A stretch of DNA of 13,815 nucleotides from a virus. Each line of letters opens with the position of its first letter. Positions within the stretch are counted from its first letter, which is position 1. Positions 1 to 12,408 of this stretch are shown piece by piece. The stretch is from UHGV virus genome UHGV-1810643; one strand, 5' to 3'. The position numbers were made by a program, and so were the translations under genes. Under the pieces are notes generated by a model, which saw only the letters and a program-made list of their open reading frames with translations, was not told where the DNA came from and searched no databases.

Positions 1-130
1 AGCTGCGGTTGCGTTCCTGAATGGTTACTACGATTGGTTTGGTTGGGTCTGGAAGAATTTGCTGGATAGCTTGAATGGCGTTCTGCTGATGGATGGGGCT
101 TCTTAGTTCAAACGTTAGTTTCCTCACCAT
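1..130 (-). CDS. ninB: NinB-like protein, N-terminal 43 codons (gene continues beyond window start)
   Basis: Minus-strand translation from ATG at 130..128 gives MVRKLTFELRSPIHQQNAIQAIQQILPDPTKPIVVTIQERNRS, close to lambda NinB N-terminus as recalled; AGGAG 5 nt upstream. Confidence 0.8.
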   Translation of the reverse strand, partial: MVRKLTFELRSPIHQQNAIQAIQQILPDPTKPIVVTIQERNRS

Positions 131-272
131 TTACACTCCTGTAATCGTCAAGTGCAGCTGCAATAGTCCCTATCGGGTCATGGTCTTGCCCGATAATCTC
201 ATTTACGTTTTCATCTTCTTCCACACCGAAAAAGAATCGCAGGGCTAACATGATTTCTTCGTATGCGCTCAT
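108..272 (-). CDS. Hypothetical small acidic protein (54 aa)
   Basis: ATG at 272..270 with AAGGAG 5 nt upstream, 2 nt after the stop of the 106-aa ORF; below the ORF-track size cutoff; overlaps ninB start by 23 nt. Confidence 0.4.
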   Translation of the reverse strand: MSAYEEIMLALRFFFGVEEDENVNEIIGQDHDPIGTIAAALDDYRSVNGEETNV

Positions 273-274
273 AC

Positions 275-595
275 TCACTCCTTCACTTTGACTCCAGCAG
301 CGCGGATGTTTTCCTCATAAGCATCCATTGCATCACCGAAGCCATTGGAATAATCAACAGTAAACCCTTTGGCTAATGCTTCTCTGCTGTCGATAAACTT
401 TGGCGCGGTTATTTCAATAGCTGCTCGCGATGCCTGCCACGTTTGCCAGTGGCCTTGAACATCGTCCATCACGTATTGACCACCAATATCACCACTGCCA
501 ATTTCATGGTGATTTTCAGGGTAACGGATAAGGTCTGAAGATTCGCCTCCACGTCGCAACCAACTTTCTTCAAACTGCTTTCTTGATTCGTCCAT
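275..595 (-). CDS. Hypothetical acidic protein (106 aa), not Ren-like
   Basis: ORF track; GAGGGT-type SD upstream of ATG at 595..593; 17 nt after upstream ORF; no similarity recognised. Confidence 0.6.
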   Translation of the reverse strand: MDESRKQFEESWLRRGGESSDLIRYPENHHEIGSGDIGGQYVMDDVQGHWQTWQASRAAIEITAPKFIDSREALAKGFTVDYSNGFGDAMDAYEENIRAAGVKVKE

Positions 596-612
596 CGATA
601 CTTACCCTCAGT

Positions 613-819
613 TCAACTCACAAAACGCCACGCCATTTTTGCTACAGCGACAGGCATAACACCGATAATCACCCAGACAAATGCAGCGCCAAACAACGTA
701 TACCATGGATCTTTACCGTCATTCACAAGGCGAATGTAGCTATGCAGAACAATAAAAAACGTCAGAAGAATCCATCCAACGCCAACGCATTTGAGTGCGA
801 CGAGCATAAACTCAACCAC
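613..819 (-). CDS. Small membrane protein (68 aa from GTG, or 64 aa from ATG at 807), two hydrophobic segments
   Basis: ORF track; GGGGGAGAG SD 6 nt before GTG at 819; hydrophobic stretches ILLTFFIVL and FGAAFVWVIIGVMPVAVA. Confidence 0.5.
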   Translation of the reverse strand: MVEFMLVALKCVGVGWILLTFFIVLHSYIRLVNDGKDPWYTLFGAAFVWVIIGVMPVAVAKMAWRFVS

Positions 820-838
820 GATTTACTCTCCCCCAAAT

Positions 839-865
839 AAAAAGGCCTGCGATTACCAGCAGGCC
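839..865 (-). terminator. tR2-like rho-independent terminator (minus strand)
   Basis: Perfect 7-bp stem ggcctgc (844..850) / gcaggcc (859..865), 8-nt loop, T-run on minus strand (forward aaaaa 839..843); same context as lambda tR2 as recalled. Confidence 0.7.
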
Positions 866-895
866 TGTTACAAGCTCAGTGATGTAGATGGTCAT

Positions 896-2776
896 TTAAT
901 ACTCCGTCACGTTTTCCTGTCGCCACGCCTCGTCATATTCCGATTTCGGCATATTGGCGATGTAGCTATATGGCGATCCTGATTCAAGTTGCAGGAACTG
1001 GTGCGATTGCTCGTCAAGGAACAACGGGACACCACCTTCCCAACCTTCGCCGTTTCGTTGTTTTTCAAGCATCAAAACAGATGCCGGAGACGCCAGTACC
1101 TGTTCGTCCTTCTCTGACATCTTTTCACCACTCTGAACTCTCTGTAACGCTCTCTCGCGAGCCTTGTTACGCCAGATGATGAAAAGGTTGTCTGTCAGGT
1201 CTGTTATCGCTCCAGAGCCTTTTACGTCCATTTTCCCGGTTGGTTTTTCTTCGCTGTCTCCTTTTCGCGAGTGAGTAACGAGAATGACGTGGGAGTTTGT
1301 TTTGTTTTTGAAGTCGCAAATCGAGTCAACAAACGCCTTCTGCCCGTTATAGTCATCGTCGCCTATGCCACATTTCATCAGGCTGTCGATGATGAATAAC
1401 TGGATCCCGTATCGGCGGCGAGCGTAGTCGAATATTTCGATCAGCCTGTCGGCTTTCGCCGTTCCGGTCAGGCCAAACACCCAAAGTCTTTCGTCATAAA
1501 ATTTAAATGCAGAGTCAATTTCCAGCACTGGCGGCATCTTGCAGCACGTTGCCTGACGGGTAAGGCGCTTAAGGAGAATACCAGGCTTCAGCTCAAGTGA
1601 CGCGATGCACGTCTTCACACCCTGACGCATTGCCTCAAGTGCCATATGCCCGACAACCTCCGTTTTTCCGTGACCGTTCACACCATTGACCAGCGTCAAC
1701 TCGGCCTCACGGAACTGGAATTTATCTGCCAGAGATTCCCACGGTGGATTAAACAGATACTGCTGCTTGCCGTAGAAAGCGTTGATAGTGTCCTGGTAAA
1801 ACTCTCGCGCGCTGTAGAGTTCTTCAGGATCAAAGTAGGATGCCGTGCCGATGTACTGCCAGATTGCATCCTCGGTAACACCGTTCATCAGGCATTCGTT
1901 GATGTCTTTGTACGGCAGAGTAACAAGACGGCAACGATGTTCACCGAGTCGGCTTGCGATTTCCCTTGCGGCTTCACGACCAACATCATCAACGTCCATC
2001 GAGATGAATATTTCCTCAAACCTGTCGAGGTTGTGATACTCAAACTCAATCCACTGTTGCTTAGCGCCTTTCCCTCCACCAAACGGTACGGATAACGCCG
2101 AGATGCCGTATTGCGCATAGCTCATACAATCAATTTCGCCTTCGCAAAGTACAACCGCCCTCACGCCAGCGTCCAGAGCCTGCCATCCGAACAGACAAGG
2201 TTCGCAATCACCTTCTGCCATAATGACTTTCTTCCCGTCCGGGCGCTCAGTGCTGATTCGCTTGACCTGCAACAACTCACCATCGCGTTTGTACGGAATC
2301 ACCAGAGCATCCAGTTCCCGCTCTCCATTCCACACCTTGCCGCTGACAACCTCGTAGCGCTTTACGATTTCTGGCGATATGCCACGCGATTGCAGGTACT
2401 CAAGATGGGATTCTGTTCTGGTAACGTAGCGGGCGATTTTCTTGCGATCAGGTCTGGAGAATTTTTTCTCACGTCTGGCATCGAAATGGTGATCGTCATC
2501 CTTGATACCGAGAAATGCTTTCGCTTCCTGCATAGCCTGATGCAGGTTAATTCCACGACATGCCATCCACAAATCAAGCATGTCACCGCCGTCTCCCTCA
2601 GCGAAATCAGCCCATTTTTTCTTGCCGCTAAGGTTGACCTTAAGGCTGTTTCCCTTGTCACCGTTGATGTTACCGGCAACCCACTCATGCCCCTCTTTCT
2701 TGCCGTTTGGCAACAGGTGCGGAGCCACCCTGTCAACCTGCGCCCAAAGCAGGTCGCTAAGTTCACTTGGCGTCAT
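896..2776 (-). CDS. Bifunctional primase-helicase (626 aa): TOPRIM primase domain plus C-terminal Walker A (DnaB/T7 gp4-like) helicase
   Basis: ORF track; TOPRIM-like motif CEGEIDCMS; Walker A GVNGHGKTE; occupies the position of lambda P. Confidence 0.88.
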   Translation of the reverse strand: MTPSELSDLLWAQVDRVAPHLLPNGKKEGHEWVAGNINGDKGNSLKVNLSGKKKWADFAEGDGGDMLDLWMACRGINLHQAMQEAKAFLGIKDDDHHFDARREKKFSRPDRKKIARYVTRTESHLEYLQSRGISPEIVKRYEVVSGKVWNGERELDALVIPYKRDGELLQVKRISTERPDGKKVIMAEGDCEPCLFGWQALDAGVRAVVLCEGEIDCMSYAQYGISALSVPFGGGKGAKQQWIEFEYHNLDRFEEIFISMDVDDVGREAAREIASRLGEHRCRLVTLPYKDINECLMNGVTEDAIWQYIGTASYFDPEELYSAREFYQDTINAFYGKQQYLFNPPWESLADKFQFREAELTLVNGVNGHGKTEVVGHMALEAMRQGVKTCIASLELKPGILLKRLTRQATCCKMPPVLEIDSAFKFYDERLWVFGLTGTAKADRLIEIFDYARRRYGIQLFIIDSLMKCGIGDDDYNGQKAFVDSICDFKNKTNSHVILVTHSRKGDSEEKPTGKMDVKGSGAITDLTDNLFIIWRNKARERALQRVQSGEKMSEKDEQVLASPASVLMLEKQRNGEGWEGGVPLFLDEQSHQFLQLESGSPYSYIANMPKSEYDEAWRQENVTEY

Positions 2777-2880
2777 GATTCCCTCAGATTGAGATTTTTA
2801 AACCAGAAATCGACAAACGAAATACTTAACCAGCCGTGGTTATAACCAGCGACCAGTAGCGATTTGATTTTTGATTTCAT
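2773..2880 (-). CDS. Possible 35-aa coupled mini-ORF between O-like gene and primase-helicase
   Basis: ATG at 2880..2878; stop overlaps primase-helicase start in an ATGA arrangement; weak SD; below ORF-track cutoff. Confidence 0.25.
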   Translation of the reverse strand: MKSKIKSLLVAGYNHGWLSISFVDFWFKNLNLRES

Positions 2881-2883
2881 GGT

Positions 2884-3744
2884 TCACCTGTCGAAAAACA
2901 CGTAGCCAGTTTTCGATACGGTGATTGCGGATGATGGTTTGGATTGTGGTTGAATGGTTTCTGGCTTTTCGTCGTTCCAGCGTTGACCGTTCAGGTAGCT
3001 CGATGGTAACAACCTGTCGAATCCGAACTGCTTACCATTCCTGCATGCGATGTCTTCTGCCAGCATCGTGGCAAACTCGCTTGCCGTCCCCCTGGTAGTT
3101 TTACGCCATTCCCTGAACTGTGTTCTGAATGCCGAAGCTGCGTTTTTCTTCCCGGCTTTCCGCATGCCTGCACACCAGAATATTTCCTCGAATGCCTTGT
3201 CGGTTTCTTCGTGACGGTCATGTGATTTTTCACACTCCGTCCGAACACTTTCGGACATAGTGTTTTTATTATTTCTTTTTTCTTTTGTAATAGTTTCTTT
3301 TGTGTGTCCCTGTTTTGGTGACAGCGCTGTCACCGTTTTGGTGACACTTTTTGTCACCAATGCAGTGACATTATCACCAGAGTAGTGACACCCTTCGATT
3401 TGCCATTCCTCGATGTTCTTGTTAGGCCCGATTTGCTGGCCTTCGCGAAGGATAACCTTCATCGCGATAAGCTCATTCTTGGCCTTGTTTACCTTCTGTC
3501 TTGGCAGCCTGGTAATTTGAGCTAACTGACTATCAGAGATGCGATCCATCTTTTTACCGTAGCCGTATGTTTTACGGCATATGGCGTGGGCAACCTTGCT
3601 CTGATTTTTCGTTAAATCTGCGCCGATAAGCTCTTCATACAGGGCATTTGCAAGACGGGTATAACCATCTTCAACTTCTGCCACACGACGCTCCACAGGC
3701 CGTTGTGAAGGCCTTAAATGTGTTACGGTTGCAAGATTACTCAT
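2884..3744 (-). CDS. Replication initiator, lambda O-like N-terminal DNA-binding domain with divergent C-terminal domain (286 aa)
   Basis: ORF track; N-terminal region [26 protein letters not shown]...[16 protein letters not shown] resembles lambda O as recalled; AAGGAG SD; iteron origin inside the gene. Confidence 0.85.
3263..3393. repeat. Replication origin: four GTGACA-containing iterons (3317..3393) next to an A/T-rich tract (3263..3300)
   Basis: GTGACA at 3318, 3341, 3365, 3385 with 20-24 bp spacing; perfect palindrome GGTGACAGCGCTGTCACC at 3317..3334; A/T-rich run on the side expected for an ori-lambda-type layout. Confidence 0.7.
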
Positions 3745-3883
3745 GACCTTTCTCCTTCTGCATCAGCTTCACTTTTTCCAACTCAGCCCGGAATCGACCA
3801 GGCTGCTTGAAGCTGGACAGGAAGCGATCACGTAGTATGTGTTTGTGAATTTTGTCCTGGTAAGGACTGAGTTGTTTTGTCAT
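3737..3883 (-). CDS. Possible 48-aa basic protein in the cII-O intergenic region
   Basis: ATG at 3883..3881 with AGGAG 5 nt upstream; stop overlaps the O-like start; below ORF-track cutoff. Confidence 0.3.
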
Positions 3884-3917
3884 AATTACTCCTGTGGATT
3901 GATCCAGTCTTTCTACA

Positions 3918-4196
3918 TCAGGCCTCGAAGAATTCGCCGTTCTTCGGGGCTTTTTCTTTTGTCAGCATTCTGGCTACTTGCTTAGCCAGTTCCGCCAACT
4001 CCTCGTCTTCAACACCCCATTCCAGCACAGCCAGAAGCATGGCCATCTTTGGGATAAAGCTGTCTTTCCATCGCGAAATTTGCGATTCATTAATCCCTAA
4101 CGCGTCGGCAACCTTTCGCTGACCACGTACAGCAATTCGATTCAGGATGTTGCTTGTAATTGCATTCGCTTTCTTGCGAGTACTTGTAAGTTGCAT
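3918..4196 (-). CDS. cII: CII-like transcriptional activator (92 aa), divergent from lambda CII
   Basis: Start set at ATG 4196..4194 because the upstream leader matches the lambda cII leader as recalled; conserved SQISRWK helix; ORF-track upstream extension rejected. Confidence 0.85.
3923..3960 (+). terminator. oop-like antisense terminator overlapping the 3' end of cII
   Basis: Plus-strand hairpin cctcgaagaa / ttcttcgggg (one mismatch), 7-nt loop, followed by ctttttctttt; antisense to cII C-terminal codons, as for lambda oop. Confidence 0.55.
4174..4187 (+). promoter_or_regulatory. pRE-like CII binding site (TTGC-N6-TTGT) inside the cII 5' coding region
   Basis: TTGC at 4174..4177 and TTGT at 4184..4187, same distance from the cII ATG as the lambda pRE TTGC repeats (recalled); oriented toward cro antisense / cI. 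Confidence 0.5.
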
Positions 4197-4275
4197 ATGT
4201 AAGTATTTCCTTAGATAACAATTGATTGAATGTATGCAAATAAATGCATACACCATAGGTGTGGTTTAATTTGAT

Positions 4276-4307
4276 GCCCTTTTTCAGGGCTGGAATGTGT
4301 AAGAGCG
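4276..4307 (-). promoter_or_regulatory. nutR (boxB and boxA)
   Basis: Minus-strand boxB GCCCTGAAAAAGGGC (4276..4290) and boxA CGCTCTTAC (4299..4307). Confidence 0.8.
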
Positions 4308-4314
4308 GGGTTAT

Positions 4315-4524
<210 letters not shown>

Positions 4525-4612: not shown

Positions 4613-5329
<717 letters not shown>

Positions 5330-5441: not shown

Positions 5442-6281
5442 ATGAAGAATGGTTTTTATGCGACTTACCGCAGCAAAAATAAAGGGAAAGATAAGCGCTC
5501 AATAAACCTGTCTGTTTTCCTTAATTCTCTGCTGGCTGATAATCATCACCTGCAGGTTGGCTCCAATTATTTGTATATTCATAAAATCGATGGAAAAACT
5601 TTTCTCTTTACCAAAACAAATGACAAGAGTCTGGTTCAGAAGATAAATCGCTCTAAAGCTTCAGTTGAAGATATTAAGAACAGCCTCGCAGATGACGAAT
5701 CATTGGGATTCCCATCTTTTTTGTTTGTTGAAGGCGACACCATTGGTTTTGCCAGAACTGTTTTCGGGCCGACCACATCCGATCTGACAGATTTTTTAAT
5801 CGGGAAAGGAATGTCATTAAGCAGTGGAGAGCGCGTTCAGATAGAGCCACTGATGAGGGGAACCACCAAAGACGATGTTATGCATATGCATTTCATCGGC
5901 CGAACAACGGTGAAGGTAGAAGCCAAGCTACCTGTATTTGGCGATATATTAAAGGTCTTAGGGGCAACAGATATTGAAGGGGAGCTTTTTGACTCATTGG
6001 ATATAGTCATTAAGCCAAAATTTAAAAGGGATATAAAAAAGGTTGCCAAGGATATTATTTTTAACCCGTCACCTCAATTTTCAGACATTAGCCTGCGGGC
6101 AAAAGATGAGGCCGGAGATATTTTAACAGAACATTATCTATCAGAAAAAGGCCATCTCTCAGCGCCTCTGAACAAGGTCACCAATGCTGAGATAGCTGAA
6201 GAGATGGCATATTGCTACGCAAGAATGAAAAGTGATATACTGGAATGTTTTAAAAGGCAGGTGGGCAAAGTTAAGGATTAA
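5442..6281 (+). CDS. rexA: RexA (279 aa)
   Basis: ORF-track protein beginning MKNGFYATYRSKNKGKDKRSINLSVF matches lambda RexA as recalled. Confidence 0.95.
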   Translation: MKNGFYATYRSKNKGKDKRSINLSVFLNSLLADNHHLQVGSNYLYIHKIDGKTFLFTKTNDKSLVQKINRSKASVEDIKNSLADDESLGFPSFLFVEGDTIGFARTVFGPTTSDLTDFLIGKGMSLSSGERVQIEPLMRGTTKDDVMHMHFIGRTTVKVEAKLPVFGDILKVLGATDIEGELFDSLDIVIKPKFKRDIKKVAKDIIFNPSPQFSDISLRAKDEAGDILTEHYLSEKGHLSAPLNKVTNAEIAEEMAYCYARMKSDILECFKRQVGKVKD

Positions 6282-6296
6282 TTATCAGGAGTAATT

Positions 6297-6731
6297 ATGC
6301 GGAACAGAATCATGCCTGGTGTTTACATAGTAATAATTCCTTACGTTATCGTAAGCATTTGCTATCTCCTTTTCCGCCACTACATTCCTGGTGTTTCTTT
6401 TTCAGCTCATAGAGATGGTCTTGGGGCGACATTGTCATCATATGCAGGAACCATGATTGCAATCCTGATTGCTGCCTTGACGTTTCTAATCGGAAGCAGA
6501 ACGCGCCGACTGGCCAAGATTAGAGAGTATGGGTATATGACATCGGTAGTTATTGTCTATGCCCTTAGTTTTGTTGAGCTTGGAGCTTTGTTTTTCTGCG
6601 GGTTATTGCTTCTTTCCAGCATAAGCGGCTACATGATACCCACTATCGCCATCGGCATTGCCTCTGCATCGTTCATTCATATATGCATCCTTGTTTTCCA
6701 ACTATATAATTTGACCAGAGAACAAGAATAA
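6297..6731 (+). CDS. rexB: RexB (144 aa), polytopic membrane protein
   Basis: ORF-track protein matches lambda RexB as recalled; several hydrophobic segments. Confidence 0.95.
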   Translation: MRNRIMPGVYIVIIPYVIVSICYLLFRHYIPGVSFSAHRDGLGATLSSYAGTMIAILIAALTFLIGSRTRRLAKIREYGYMTSVVIVYALSFVELGALFFCGLLLLSSISGYMIPTIAIGIASASFIHICILVFQLYNLTREQE

Positions 6732-8995: not shown

Positions 8996-9601
8996 ATGAG
9001 CAAAGAATTTTACGCAAGACTGGCAGCCATTCAGGAGAATCTGAACGCGCCAAAGAATCAGTACAACTCATTCGGTAAATATAAATACAGAAGCTGCGAA
9101 GACATTCTTGAAGGCGTTAAGCCGTTACTGAATGGCCTGTTTTTATCAATCAGCGATGAAGTTGTGTTGATTGGTGATCGGTATTACGTGAAAGCCACGG
9201 CAACTATTACCGATGGCGAAAACAGTCATACGGCAACCGCACTAGCACGAGAGGAAGAAAGCAAGAAAGGAATGGATTCTGCACAAGTTACGGGCGCTAC
9301 AAGCTCTTATGCACGCAAGTATTGCCTCAATGGTTTGTTCGGCATTGATGATGCGAAAGATGCAGATACAGACGAGCATAAACATCAGCAGAGCGCAGCA
9401 GCAAAGCAATCAAAACCATCACCTACACCTGAACAGGTTCTAAAAGCATTCACTGACGCAGCATTGCAGAAAAACACCGTGGAAGAGCTTAAACAGGCGT
9501 TCGCCAAAGCGTGGAAGATGCTCGAAGGCACACCGGAGCAGCAAAAAGCGCAGGACGTTTACAACATCAGACGAGACGAATTAGAAGGAGCGGCTGCTTA
9601 A
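8996..9601 (+). CDS. erf: Erf single-strand annealing recombinase (201 aa)
   Basis: Protein from MSKEFYARLAAIQENLNAPKNQYNSFGKYKYRSCEDILEGVKPLL matches P22 Erf as recalled; start at internal ATG 8996 rather than ORF-track 8966. Confidence 0.9.
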   Translation: MSKEFYARLAAIQENLNAPKNQYNSFGKYKYRSCEDILEGVKPLLNGLFLSISDEVVLIGDRYYVKATATITDGENSHTATALAREEESKKGMDSAQVTGATSSYARKYCLNGLFGIDDAKDADTDEHKHQQSAAAKQSKPSPTPEQVLKAFTDAALQKNTVEELKQAFAKAWKMLEGTPEQQKAQDVYNIRRDELEGAAA

Positions 9602-9984
9602 TGGCACATTCGATTACTGTAAGACTAAACAAGCCCGTAAGAGAGTTTCAGGCCGGGGAAAATATCGGATTCAACATCCGTGCTGGCGTTCAGTATTACG
9701 ATCGCCAGACAAAAAAGAAAGAATGGACAAACTACAGCGCCGTTGTATTTGCCAAGCCGGGAGCGCAAGCGGATTACTACCGTAGTGTTCTTGTTGAAGG
9801 TGGCATTGTAGAAATTACCGGAGAAAACATCAGGGTTGATGTTTATCAGGGGCAAAATGGTCAATCAATCACTCTTGAATTACTGAATGCAAAGATTGGA
9901 TTTGCAGCTTCAGGAAATGGCCCGCAGCAGCAAAGTAGTAATCATCAAAATCATCCTGAATACGACGATTCAATTCCCTTCTAA
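9601..9984 (+). CDS. Short SSB-like protein (127 aa) with C-terminal acidic DDSIPF tail
   Basis: ATG at 9601 overlapping the erf stop; OB-fold-like core; C-terminus PEYDDSIPF resembles the E. coli SSB tail DDDIPF. Confidence 0.7.
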   Translation: MAHSITVRLNKPVREFQAGENIGFNIRAGVQYYDRQTKKKEWTNYSAVVFAKPGAQADYYRSVLVEGGIVEITGENIRVDVYQGQNGQSITLELLNAKIGFAASGNGPQQQSSNHQNHPEYDDSIPF

Positions 9985-12373: not shown

Positions 12374-12396
12374 GCCGCATCAATGCGGCTTTTCTT
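12374..12396 (+). terminator. Terminator-like hairpin upstream of xis
   Basis: Stem gccgca (12374..12379) / tgcggc (12384..12389), loop tcaa, then ttttctt. Confidence 0.5.
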
Positions 12397-12408
12397 GCGT
12401 GTAATTGC
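12395..12408 (+). promoter_or_regulatory. pI-type CII binding site (TTGC-N6-TTGC) upstream of / overlapping xis start
   Basis: ttgc 12395..12398, six nt, ttgc 12405..12408, as in lambda pI. Confidence 0.5.

Follow-up and report, generated by a model that had tools for sequence, protein, structure and literature searches.

The window, as we call the whole stretch of DNA analyzed here (13,815 nucleotides of the virus genome UHGV-1810643), is the early region of a lambdoid prophage in an orientation reversed relative to the standard lambda map. The cI gene (4616–5329, plus strand) is followed on the plus strand by rexA, rexB, an N gene, recombination genes, xis, and int, and cro (4315–4515, minus strand) is encoded on the same strand as cII and the replication genes. 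Our subject is the region from 896 to 4196, in which the early-right operon of a P22-like Escherichia coli prophage with lambda immunity carries cII and the replication genes; the prophage looks intact. The 4.7 kb around this region match a prophage of the uropathogenic strain E. coli KE40 at 100% identity. That prophage is integrated at the lambda attachment site, beside ybhC; it has int/xis and immunity genes of the lambda type, recombination genes of the Erf type, and a P22-type virion, with a full early, lysis, and virion gene set.

We determined the limits of the lambda-like DNA on both sides of the region. In a BLASTN comparison with lambda (NC_001416), window 7062–4194 corresponded to lambda 35494–38362 at 99.9% identity (1 mismatch and 2 gaps in 2,870 columns). 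The first base of lambda cII is 38360, and identity thus stops on the G of the ATG (window 4196–4194), and in a multiple alignment position 4193, the first base past the ATG, is already unlike lambda. Over cII codons 1–77 just 27% of the sequence can be aligned to lambda, at 74% identity. Similarity returns at 895, immediately after the TAA (896–898) of a 626-amino-acid open reading frame (ORF), and there it matches lambda 40567–40636, which comprises the end of ren and the ninA/tR2 sequence. It follows from these two edges that lambda 38363–40566 (cII, O, P, and ren; 2.2 kb) is replaced by window 4193–896 (3.3 kb). An earlier reading made without database searches (hereafter the sequence-only reading) had placed the end of the lambda leader identity at the cII ATG and had bounded the exchanged DNA at 896–4196; the alignments bear out the first claim, and the coordinates are exact. 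Its inventory of genes was incomplete, because the exchange of cII itself, a 48-codon gene, and a 35-codon ORF had been overlooked.

The cro–cII intergenic leader (4197–4314, minus strand) contains nutR (approximately 4275–4291), tR1, and the cII Shine-Dalgarno sequence, which we located by mapping lambda feature coordinates through a gap-free alignment. It is followed by a cII gene (3918–4196, minus strand; 92 amino acids) of the Sf6 gene 41/HK542 type, the product of which matches the Pfam family Phage_CII (PF05269) over its full length (residues 1–91, E 3e-42). This protein is 54% identical to lambda CII, and the recognition stretch SQISRWK is the same in both. A putative PRE promoter on the plus strand (4174–4206) would consist of a CII box, TTGCGAGTACTTGT (4174–4187), inside cII and a −10 element, AAGTAT (4201–4206), in the lambda-identical leader. 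The box lies at the lambda-equivalent position with TTGT as its second repeat, and the Sf6 record annotates a gene 41 protein binding site and PRE at the equivalent position. A perfect TTGC-N6-TTGC pattern 24 nt further in (4150–4163) was considered as the PRE box and rejected, because the spacing to the leader −10 element favors 4174–4187 and because the number of occurrences of this pattern in the window is not above chance. We also observed that the lambda PI-type CII box TTGCGTGTAATTGC is kept upstream of xis/int (12395–12408, plus strand) despite a cII allele only 54% identical to that of lambda; this fits both the identity of the recognition stretch and a free assortment of cII alleles.

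Downstream of cII lies a 33 bp pO/oop sequence, ACTGGATCAATCCACAGGAGTAATTATGACAAA (3876–3908, minus strand), which ends 8 nt into the next gene, at the equivalent of the start of lambda O. It is 91% identical to lambda 38661–38693 and matches exactly the consensus printed by Hayes and co-workers (PMC3349717). This sequence, which the Sf6 annotation names boundary bsq5, is the left boundary of the replication genes. A terminator on the plus strand (3920–3962), consisting of a 14 bp stem and a T run, overlaps the 3′ end of cII and would belong to an oop-like antisense RNA, as its position is that of lambda oop (PMC3349717). The next gene, orf48 (3737–3883, minus strand; 48 amino acids), lies between oop and the O-like gene and encodes a DUF2740 protein (Pfam, E 9e-29; phrog_1913). 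It is found between oop and the initiator gene in P22, HK022, and HK97 and is naturally missing from lambda (PMC3349717). PHROG 1913 calls the product “tail protein,” as does PGAP in several RefSeq phage records; given the location of orf48 in the early operon, where oop precedes it and the initiator gene follows, this label looks like a propagated annotation error.

The O-like initiator gene (2884–3744, minus strand) encodes 286 amino acids in two parts, an N-terminal origin-binding domain (approximately residues 1–157) and a C-terminal domain (residues 160–286; nucleotides 2887–3267). The N-terminal part contains the Phage_rep_O winged-helix domain (PF04492, residues 20–114, E 1e-37; TIGR01610, E 2e-30) and aligns to lambda O (residues 1–155) over residues 1–157 only, at 49% identity. 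Beyond residue 157, BLASTP found no similarity to lambda O, and hhalign gave a probability of 0.1% for a relationship between the last 127 residues and the lambda O C terminus, so remote homology is unsupported. The C-terminal domain matches phrog_33384, and a search of PDB sequences with the O-like protein returned nothing significant. Inside the gene, 3232–3390 is a predicted replication origin made up of four 19 bp iterons, an AT-rich stretch, and a palindrome. The iterons (3305–3323, 3328–3346, 3352–3370, and 3372–3390) are dyads of the form TGTCACC-N5-GGTGACA, a pattern with 5 matches in the window where 0.53 would be expected and for which none of 200 shuffles reached 5. The AT-rich stretch (approximately 3260–3304; 17.5% GC at 3260–3299) adjoins the iterons, and the palindrome (3232–3263) has 14 bp arms. 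The initiator gene is followed by a 35-codon ORF (2773–2880, minus strand; phrog_21848, E 4e-26), the stop codon of which overlaps the start of the last replication gene (ATGA); its counterpart is annotated at the same place as gp60 in phage ES18 and as a hypothetical protein in phage 720R6.

The last replication gene (896–2776, minus strand) encodes the 626-amino-acid protein, a bifunctional primase-helicase of the T7 gp4/Twinkle type. It has a zinc-less domain resembling a zinc-binding domain (ZBD; approximately residues 26–93), an RNA-polymerase domain (RPD) with TOPRIM (residues 209–296), an SF4 helicase domain (residues 355–594), and a conserved C-terminal tail. Pfam searches detected Toprim_2 at residues 209–296 (E 3e-12) and AAA_25/DnaB_C at residues 355–594, residues 26–143 match the dnaG N terminus (TIGR01391), and the protein falls into PHROG 239 (phrog_239, “DNA primase/helicase”; E 4e-171). 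T7 gp4 (E 8e-23) and Twinkle (E 1e-13) were recovered from the PDB sequences. We also searched for related folds using Foldseek with an AlphaFold2 (AF2) model, for which the mean predicted local distance difference test (pLDDT) score was 71. Human Twinkle was the top match (E 8e-22), followed by T7 gp4 (E 3e-21) and the ZBD and RPD of Aquifex DnaG (E 6e-11), and the modeled protein shares the fold and the domain order of the gp4 family (ZBD, RPD, helicase).

In a residue-level alignment, the metal-binding acidic residues of TOPRIM (E212, D261, D263, and D291) align with conserved positions of T7 gp4, and the SF4 motifs (H1, H1a, H2, H3, and H4) align to those of gp4 as well: GVNGHGKT with K371 (Walker A), E395, D464 (Walker B), H502, and GSGA520. 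The arginine finger, R574, was assigned by motif only; the gp4 alignment stops at residue 539. The four acidic residues, K371, E395, D464, H502, GSGA520, and R574 are invariant in 22 homologues (69–99% identity). In the sequence-only reading, O, P, and ren had given way to a TOPRIM primase/helicase fusion and an O-like initiator whose C-terminal domain differs. Domain and alignment searches agree with that description, and the call of primase and helicase motifs in the 626-amino-acid protein holds.

Immediately after the primase-helicase stop codon, the ATG of a ninA-remnant/tR2 sequence (826–895, minus strand; terminator hairpin at 843–866) begins the right-hand flank. This sequence, annotated as bsq6/tR2 in Sf6, marks the right end of the replication genes and is 96–100% identical in lambda, HK542, Sf6, 720R6, Sf101, ES18, and phi24B, which between them carry four different replication modules.

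To locate the mosaic joints, we divided the DNA into eight consecutive segments and compared each with seven reference phages and one diverged relative, Fraca. The leader (4197–4330) is 100% identical in lambda and HK542 and 99% identical from 4309 in Sf6 and 720R6; over at least 116 bp these four phages have the same leader. At cII codons 1–77, HK542 (96%) and Sf6 (97%) match the window, and lambda and 720R6 carry the lambda type. The 3′ end of cII and the 33 bp sequence (3874–3965) are found at 98–100% in HK542, Sf6, and Sf101. For orf48, the N-terminal half of the initiator, and the iterons, the only matches among the compared phages are 720R6 and Sf101 (and mEp043), at 100%; for the initiator C-terminal domain and the primase-helicase, phi24B (97%) and ES18 (95% and 87%, respectively) are added. 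A junction inside O, after the iterons, is recurrent, and many phage matches start at 3317 or 3268.

Two of these phages are particularly informative. HK542 has lambda-type cI and cro genes and the leader and cII allele of the window (96–100%), and from window 3873 onward its sequence departs from that of the window and continues with O and P genes of the HK022 type. Conversely, 720R6 has a lambda-type cII followed by the replication module of the window at 98–100%. HK542 and 720R6 thus uncouple the cII allele from the replication genes, which makes cII a cassette of its own; judged from these comparisons, it assorts separately between the nutR-tR1 leader and the 33 bp pO/oop sequence. Because the leader is common to phages with either cII type, the crossover could lie anywhere within it and cannot be placed at the ATG, which appears to be merely the point at which two cII alleles begin to differ. 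The proposal that the replication module was swapped at the cII ATG is therefore contradicted by HK542 and 720R6. The related claim of a clean junction at a gene start stands insofar as divergence from lambda begins at the ATG, but other edges of the module lie within genes (inside O, after the iterons).

At least three cassettes that assort independently make up the region, linked by short stretches conserved among lambdoid phages. One is the Sf6/HK542-type cII allele, between the leader and the 33 bp sequence. Another consists of orf48, the N-terminal origin-binding half of the O-like initiator, and the four cognate iterons. The third consists of the C-terminal ~125 residues of the initiator, the 35-codon ORF, and the gp4/Twinkle-type primase-helicase, and it ends at ninA/tR2. 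Two promoters appear to be split between cassettes, PRE between the leader and cII and pO/oop across the 33 bp linker. Many phages share identical flanks, and homologous recombination in these conserved linkers is therefore the most economical mechanism and the most likely route of exchange. A paper on the co-transfer of interdependent lambdoid genes does not cover these genes.

An alignment of initiators showed that the C-terminal ~125 residues are 95–100% identical in the window, ES18, and phi24B, in which they stand behind three unrelated N-terminal domains: that of the window, a lambda-type domain (ES18), and HTH_36 (phi24B). The 35-codon ORF region and the primase-helicase follow in each case. 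The N-terminal half of the ES18 protein is 94% identical to residues 17–148 of lambda O (PMC2629481). Phage Fraca has a fourth N-terminal domain, a C-terminal domain that is 55% identical, and an adjacent primase-helicase that is 61% identical; the C-terminal domain and the primase-helicase have diverged together. In the phage collection, all of the listed records with a C-terminal domain at least 92% identical had already matched the replication region in the DNA search. A search of a large database with the C-terminal domain returned mostly partial proteins of at most 220 residues and confirmed only Phage_rep_O and HTH_36 N termini in combination with the domain. This pattern of joint travel indicates that the functional unit comprises the C-terminal domain, the 35-codon ORF, and the primase-helicase, and that the N-terminal domain goes with the iterons. 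In the classical lambda model, the N-terminal domain of O binds the origin and the C-terminal domain binds the partner that delivers the helicase. The agreement of the unit with that model is the main reason for thinking that the C-terminal domain recruits the primase-helicase.

Two further features of the primase-helicase were observed. The C-terminal tail (residues 597–626; 896–985, minus strand) contains the sequence NMPxSEYDExWxxxNVTEY, is conserved in the homologues with 69–99% identity, and is predicted to be disordered except for one helix. We speculate that it may be a docking peptide, by analogy with the acidic tail through which T7 gp4 contacts its polymerase. The homologue in phi24B and Stx2a phages (phi24B “P”) has 968 residues and is 96–98% identical to the window protein, with the addition of a 342-residue insertion inside Walker A (GVNGHGK/ACPLNE...VATHN/TEVVG; window equivalent 1661–1666) that is absent from the window allele. 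The last two residues of this insertion are HN, and the next residue is Thr, as in inteins; a Cronobacter protein also has 968 residues.

We propose that the module works as follows. Transcription from PR, controlled by lambda cI, cro, and N, would express the operon, and the initiator N-terminal domain would bind the iterons within its own gene and destabilize the adjacent AT-rich stretch. The C-terminal domain would then recruit the phage's own ring helicase-primase, which would load itself as gp4 does, unwind the DNA, and lay down primers for extension by host DNA polymerase III. A P-type loader and host DnaB and DnaC would not be needed in this scheme. Lambda needs the DnaK/DnaJ/GrpE chaperones to release P, and remodeling by these proteins would probably be dispensable as well. 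Independence from DnaB and from a P-type loader is plausible. In our assessment, a cassette mosaic combined with replication by an initiator-recruited phage helicase-primase is probably the best account of the region as a whole. A more specific proposal, which we advance tentatively and rate at somewhat less than an even chance, is that the initiator C-terminal ~125 residues, possibly together with the 35-residue peptide, constitute a portable adaptor that loads a zinc-less gp4/Twinkle-type primase-helicase at an iteron origin, giving a replicon that does without host DnaB, DnaC, DnaG, and DnaK/DnaJ/GrpE. If so, the four natural origin-binding domains fused to the adaptor make the idea directly testable by domain swaps.

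Several observations weigh against this account. The Cys4 zinc site is absent from the primase-helicase: residues 1–100 hold a single Cys (C73) and no CxxC pair, and the site has also been lost from the homologues in Fraca (61%) and Pseudomonas phage AF (41–45%). The zinc domain of T7 gp4 is required for template-directed priming, and metazoan Twinkle, which is without the zinc domain, does not prime. The missing site and the Twinkle precedent mean that self-priming is not guaranteed, and activity of the primase half without a zinc site is the weakest step of the scheme; conservation of TOPRIM and of the ZBD-like domain argues for it, and Twinkle for caution. The AF2 model of the initiator C-terminal domain, built from a 10-sequence alignment, consists of three helices and a disordered tail and is of low confidence (pLDDT 55). 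In Vibrio phage PVA1, an HTH_36 initiator has a remote homologue (41%) of the C-terminal domain and is followed by a 213-codon ORF, unannotated in RefSeq, with a weak match to a P-like helicase loader in place of a primase-helicase, so that this domain family is not tied exclusively to gp4-type partners. Finally, in the searchable literature we found neither a biochemical or genetic test of the module (including in dnaB, dnaC, or dnaG hosts) nor a biochemical account of an initiator directing the loading of a gp4-type helicase; that the C-terminal domain acts as recruiter and that DnaB, DnaC, and DnaG are dispensable are accordingly points that we infer.

The history of the region could be simpler than a mosaic if a single modular exchange had replaced lambda cII through ren as one block, with its crossover exactly at the cII start codon. 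Viewed against lambda alone, this would account for the onset of divergence directly after the ATG and for its end at the stop codon of the final replication gene, but it is very unlikely, given that HK542 has the cII allele apart from the replication genes and 720R6 the reverse, that the leader up to the ATG is the same with either cII type and so gives no crossover point there, and that further junctions lie at 3876–3908 and inside O. We give scarcely any credence to the idea that the region represents a decaying, non-functional prophage remnant whose arrangement has no functional meaning. The arrangement is known here as prophage sequence only, and the primase-helicase is split into two coding sequences in the 720R6 record; nevertheless, all ORFs of the region are intact and their start and stop codons overlap, complete sets of early, lysis, and P22-type virion genes are present in the KE40 prophage, the same arrangement occurs in 32 complete genomes, and Sf101 and mEp043, which were both sequenced as phage genomes, carry the module at 98% identity.

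The remaining alternatives concern which proteins act at the fork. If the 626-amino-acid protein were a helicase only, with its primase inactivated by a degenerate ZBD as in animal Twinkle, host DnaG would prime. The lack of CxxC/CxxH ligands in residues 1–100, the same loss in homologues with 41–61% identity, and the position of human Twinkle as top fold match are as this explanation would predict. Animal Twinkle has lost the TOPRIM acidic residues too, however, and the invariance of E212, D261, D263, and D291 and the high conservation of the ZBD-like domain point to selection on the primase half, which leads us to regard a helicase-only function as unlikely. It is more improbable still that host DnaB stays the replicative helicase, recruited by the C-terminal domain of the O-like protein, and that the 626-amino-acid protein is an accessory for priming or recombination-dependent replication. 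The PVA1 gene order, with its candidate loader beside the C-terminal-domain homologue, would fit such a role, but the annotation of the KE40 prophage, over the part that was retrieved (from int up to and including the DNA-ejection genes), lists no P, DnaC, or DnaB gene, the SF4 motifs of the window protein are complete and invariant, and the C-terminal domain and the primase-helicase co-occur and co-diverge.

The region is a real but ordinary example of lambdoid mosaicism that is already documented: the ES18/Sf101-type replication genes are well known, and the junctions, the linkers, and the ES18-type module of O-like protein plus primase-helicase are already present in GenBank annotations and published comparisons. 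Among 5,426 complete E. coli genomes, 296 (~5%, including those with Stx2a phages) carry the primase-helicase gene at 95% identity or more, 112 contain the 121 bp across the leader/cII joint, and 32 contain the whole arrangement of lambda immunity plus module. More than 2,300 homologues occur across Enterobacterales, and the pairing of an O-like protein with a primase-helicase is also found in a Pseudomonas phage. The comparisons illustrate that, where the flank is common to many phages, the point at which similarity to a single reference phage stops does not reveal where recombination took place. They also show that a cassette can be bounded by the start of a gene, by a site within a promoter (PRE and pO), or by the limit of a protein domain (mid-O). 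This common module poses a small mechanistic question, namely how the origin passes from an O-type initiator to a self-loading primase-helicase.

Other features of the window lie outside the exchanged DNA. Following the Erf-family gene, an ORF at 9601–9984 (plus strand) ends in EYDDSIPF, the signature C-terminal tip of bacterial single-strand-binding proteins; its product, which is named hypothetical in the identical KE40 record, is probably a phage single-strand-binding protein. The rexA and rexB genes (5442–6731, plus strand) are retained and lambda identical, and ren, at the end of the lambda replication block, was lost in the exchange. Between the tR2 sequence and ninB (108–819, minus strand) are three small ORFs of 68, 106, and 56 codons, which belong to phrog_1165, phrog_343, and phrog_1603, respectively; the product of the first is hydrophobic and probably spans the membrane. 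These ORFs are absent from the same place in lambda, Sf101, and ES18 and are partly present in 720R6 (85%). A scan of the whole window against Rfam found no family that reached its gathering score.

Among known systems, the closest relatives of the replication module are those of Sf101, mEp043, and vB_EcoP-720R6, in which orf48, the full O-like gene with its iterons, the 35-codon ORF, and the primase-helicase are 98–100% identical to the window. These phages differ in immunity; Sf101 and mEp043 also have another cII 5′ part, and 720R6 has the lambda-type cII. The wild phages HK542, HK544, and HK244 resemble the other end of the region, as they have lambda-like cI and cro genes, the identical leader, and the same non-lambda cII, so that the apparent junction at the ATG is already present in them; they differ in having HK022/Sf6-type O and P genes downstream of the 33 bp pO/oop sequence.

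ES18 (and also epsilon34, g341c, and SEN22) has the same order of cII, a small ORF, an O-like gene with an internal origin, the 35-codon ORF, and a 626-amino-acid primase-helicase, and the ninA/tR2 sequence again forms the end. Identity is 95–96% for the O C-terminal domain and 87% for the primase-helicase DNA. ES18 differs in its lambda-type initiator N-terminal domain and origin (the window N-terminal domain is 49% identical to lambda O and has other iterons), in a cII that is only 80% identical, and in a small ORF of the HK97 gp53 type. The ES18 GenBank record of 2005 describes gp57 as c1-like, followed by gp58, gp59 (lambda gpO-like, with an internal origin), gp60, and gp61, the last annotated as “putative primase/helicase; similar to phage T7 gene 4.” For epsilon34, too, replication genes of the ES18 type and a lambda-type N-terminal domain have been noted (PMC2629481). 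We considered the “Eru” replication types of Stx phages; those described in detail are other modules, and the phi24B form may be equivalent to Eru5 (“HTH_36 protein plus primase”).

The layout of the predicted origin is shared with lambda ori, although the iteron sequence differs. Lambda and the window also have in common a Phage_rep_O N terminus, four iterons within the initiator's own gene beside an AT-rich region, and expression from PR downstream of cII and oop. The window is unlike lambda in that P and ren are missing and the initiator C-terminal domain is unrelated, and a helicase-primase supplied by the phage would take the place of captured host DnaB. T7 gp4 and mitochondrial Twinkle resemble the window protein in domain order, fold, and the TOPRIM and helicase catalytic residues, at ~20–25% identity, but the window protein lacks the four zinc ligands and is paired with an origin-binding initiator; T7 initiates at promoters without an initiator protein. 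The P22 gene 18/gene 12 pair follows the same logic as the window, with an O-like initiator and a phage-encoded replicative helicase instead of lambda P (PMC10307801). Unlike the window protein, P22 gp12 is a DnaB-type helicase without a primase domain, and the same paper terms the primase-helicase “nonhomologous” to gp12 (PMC10307801).

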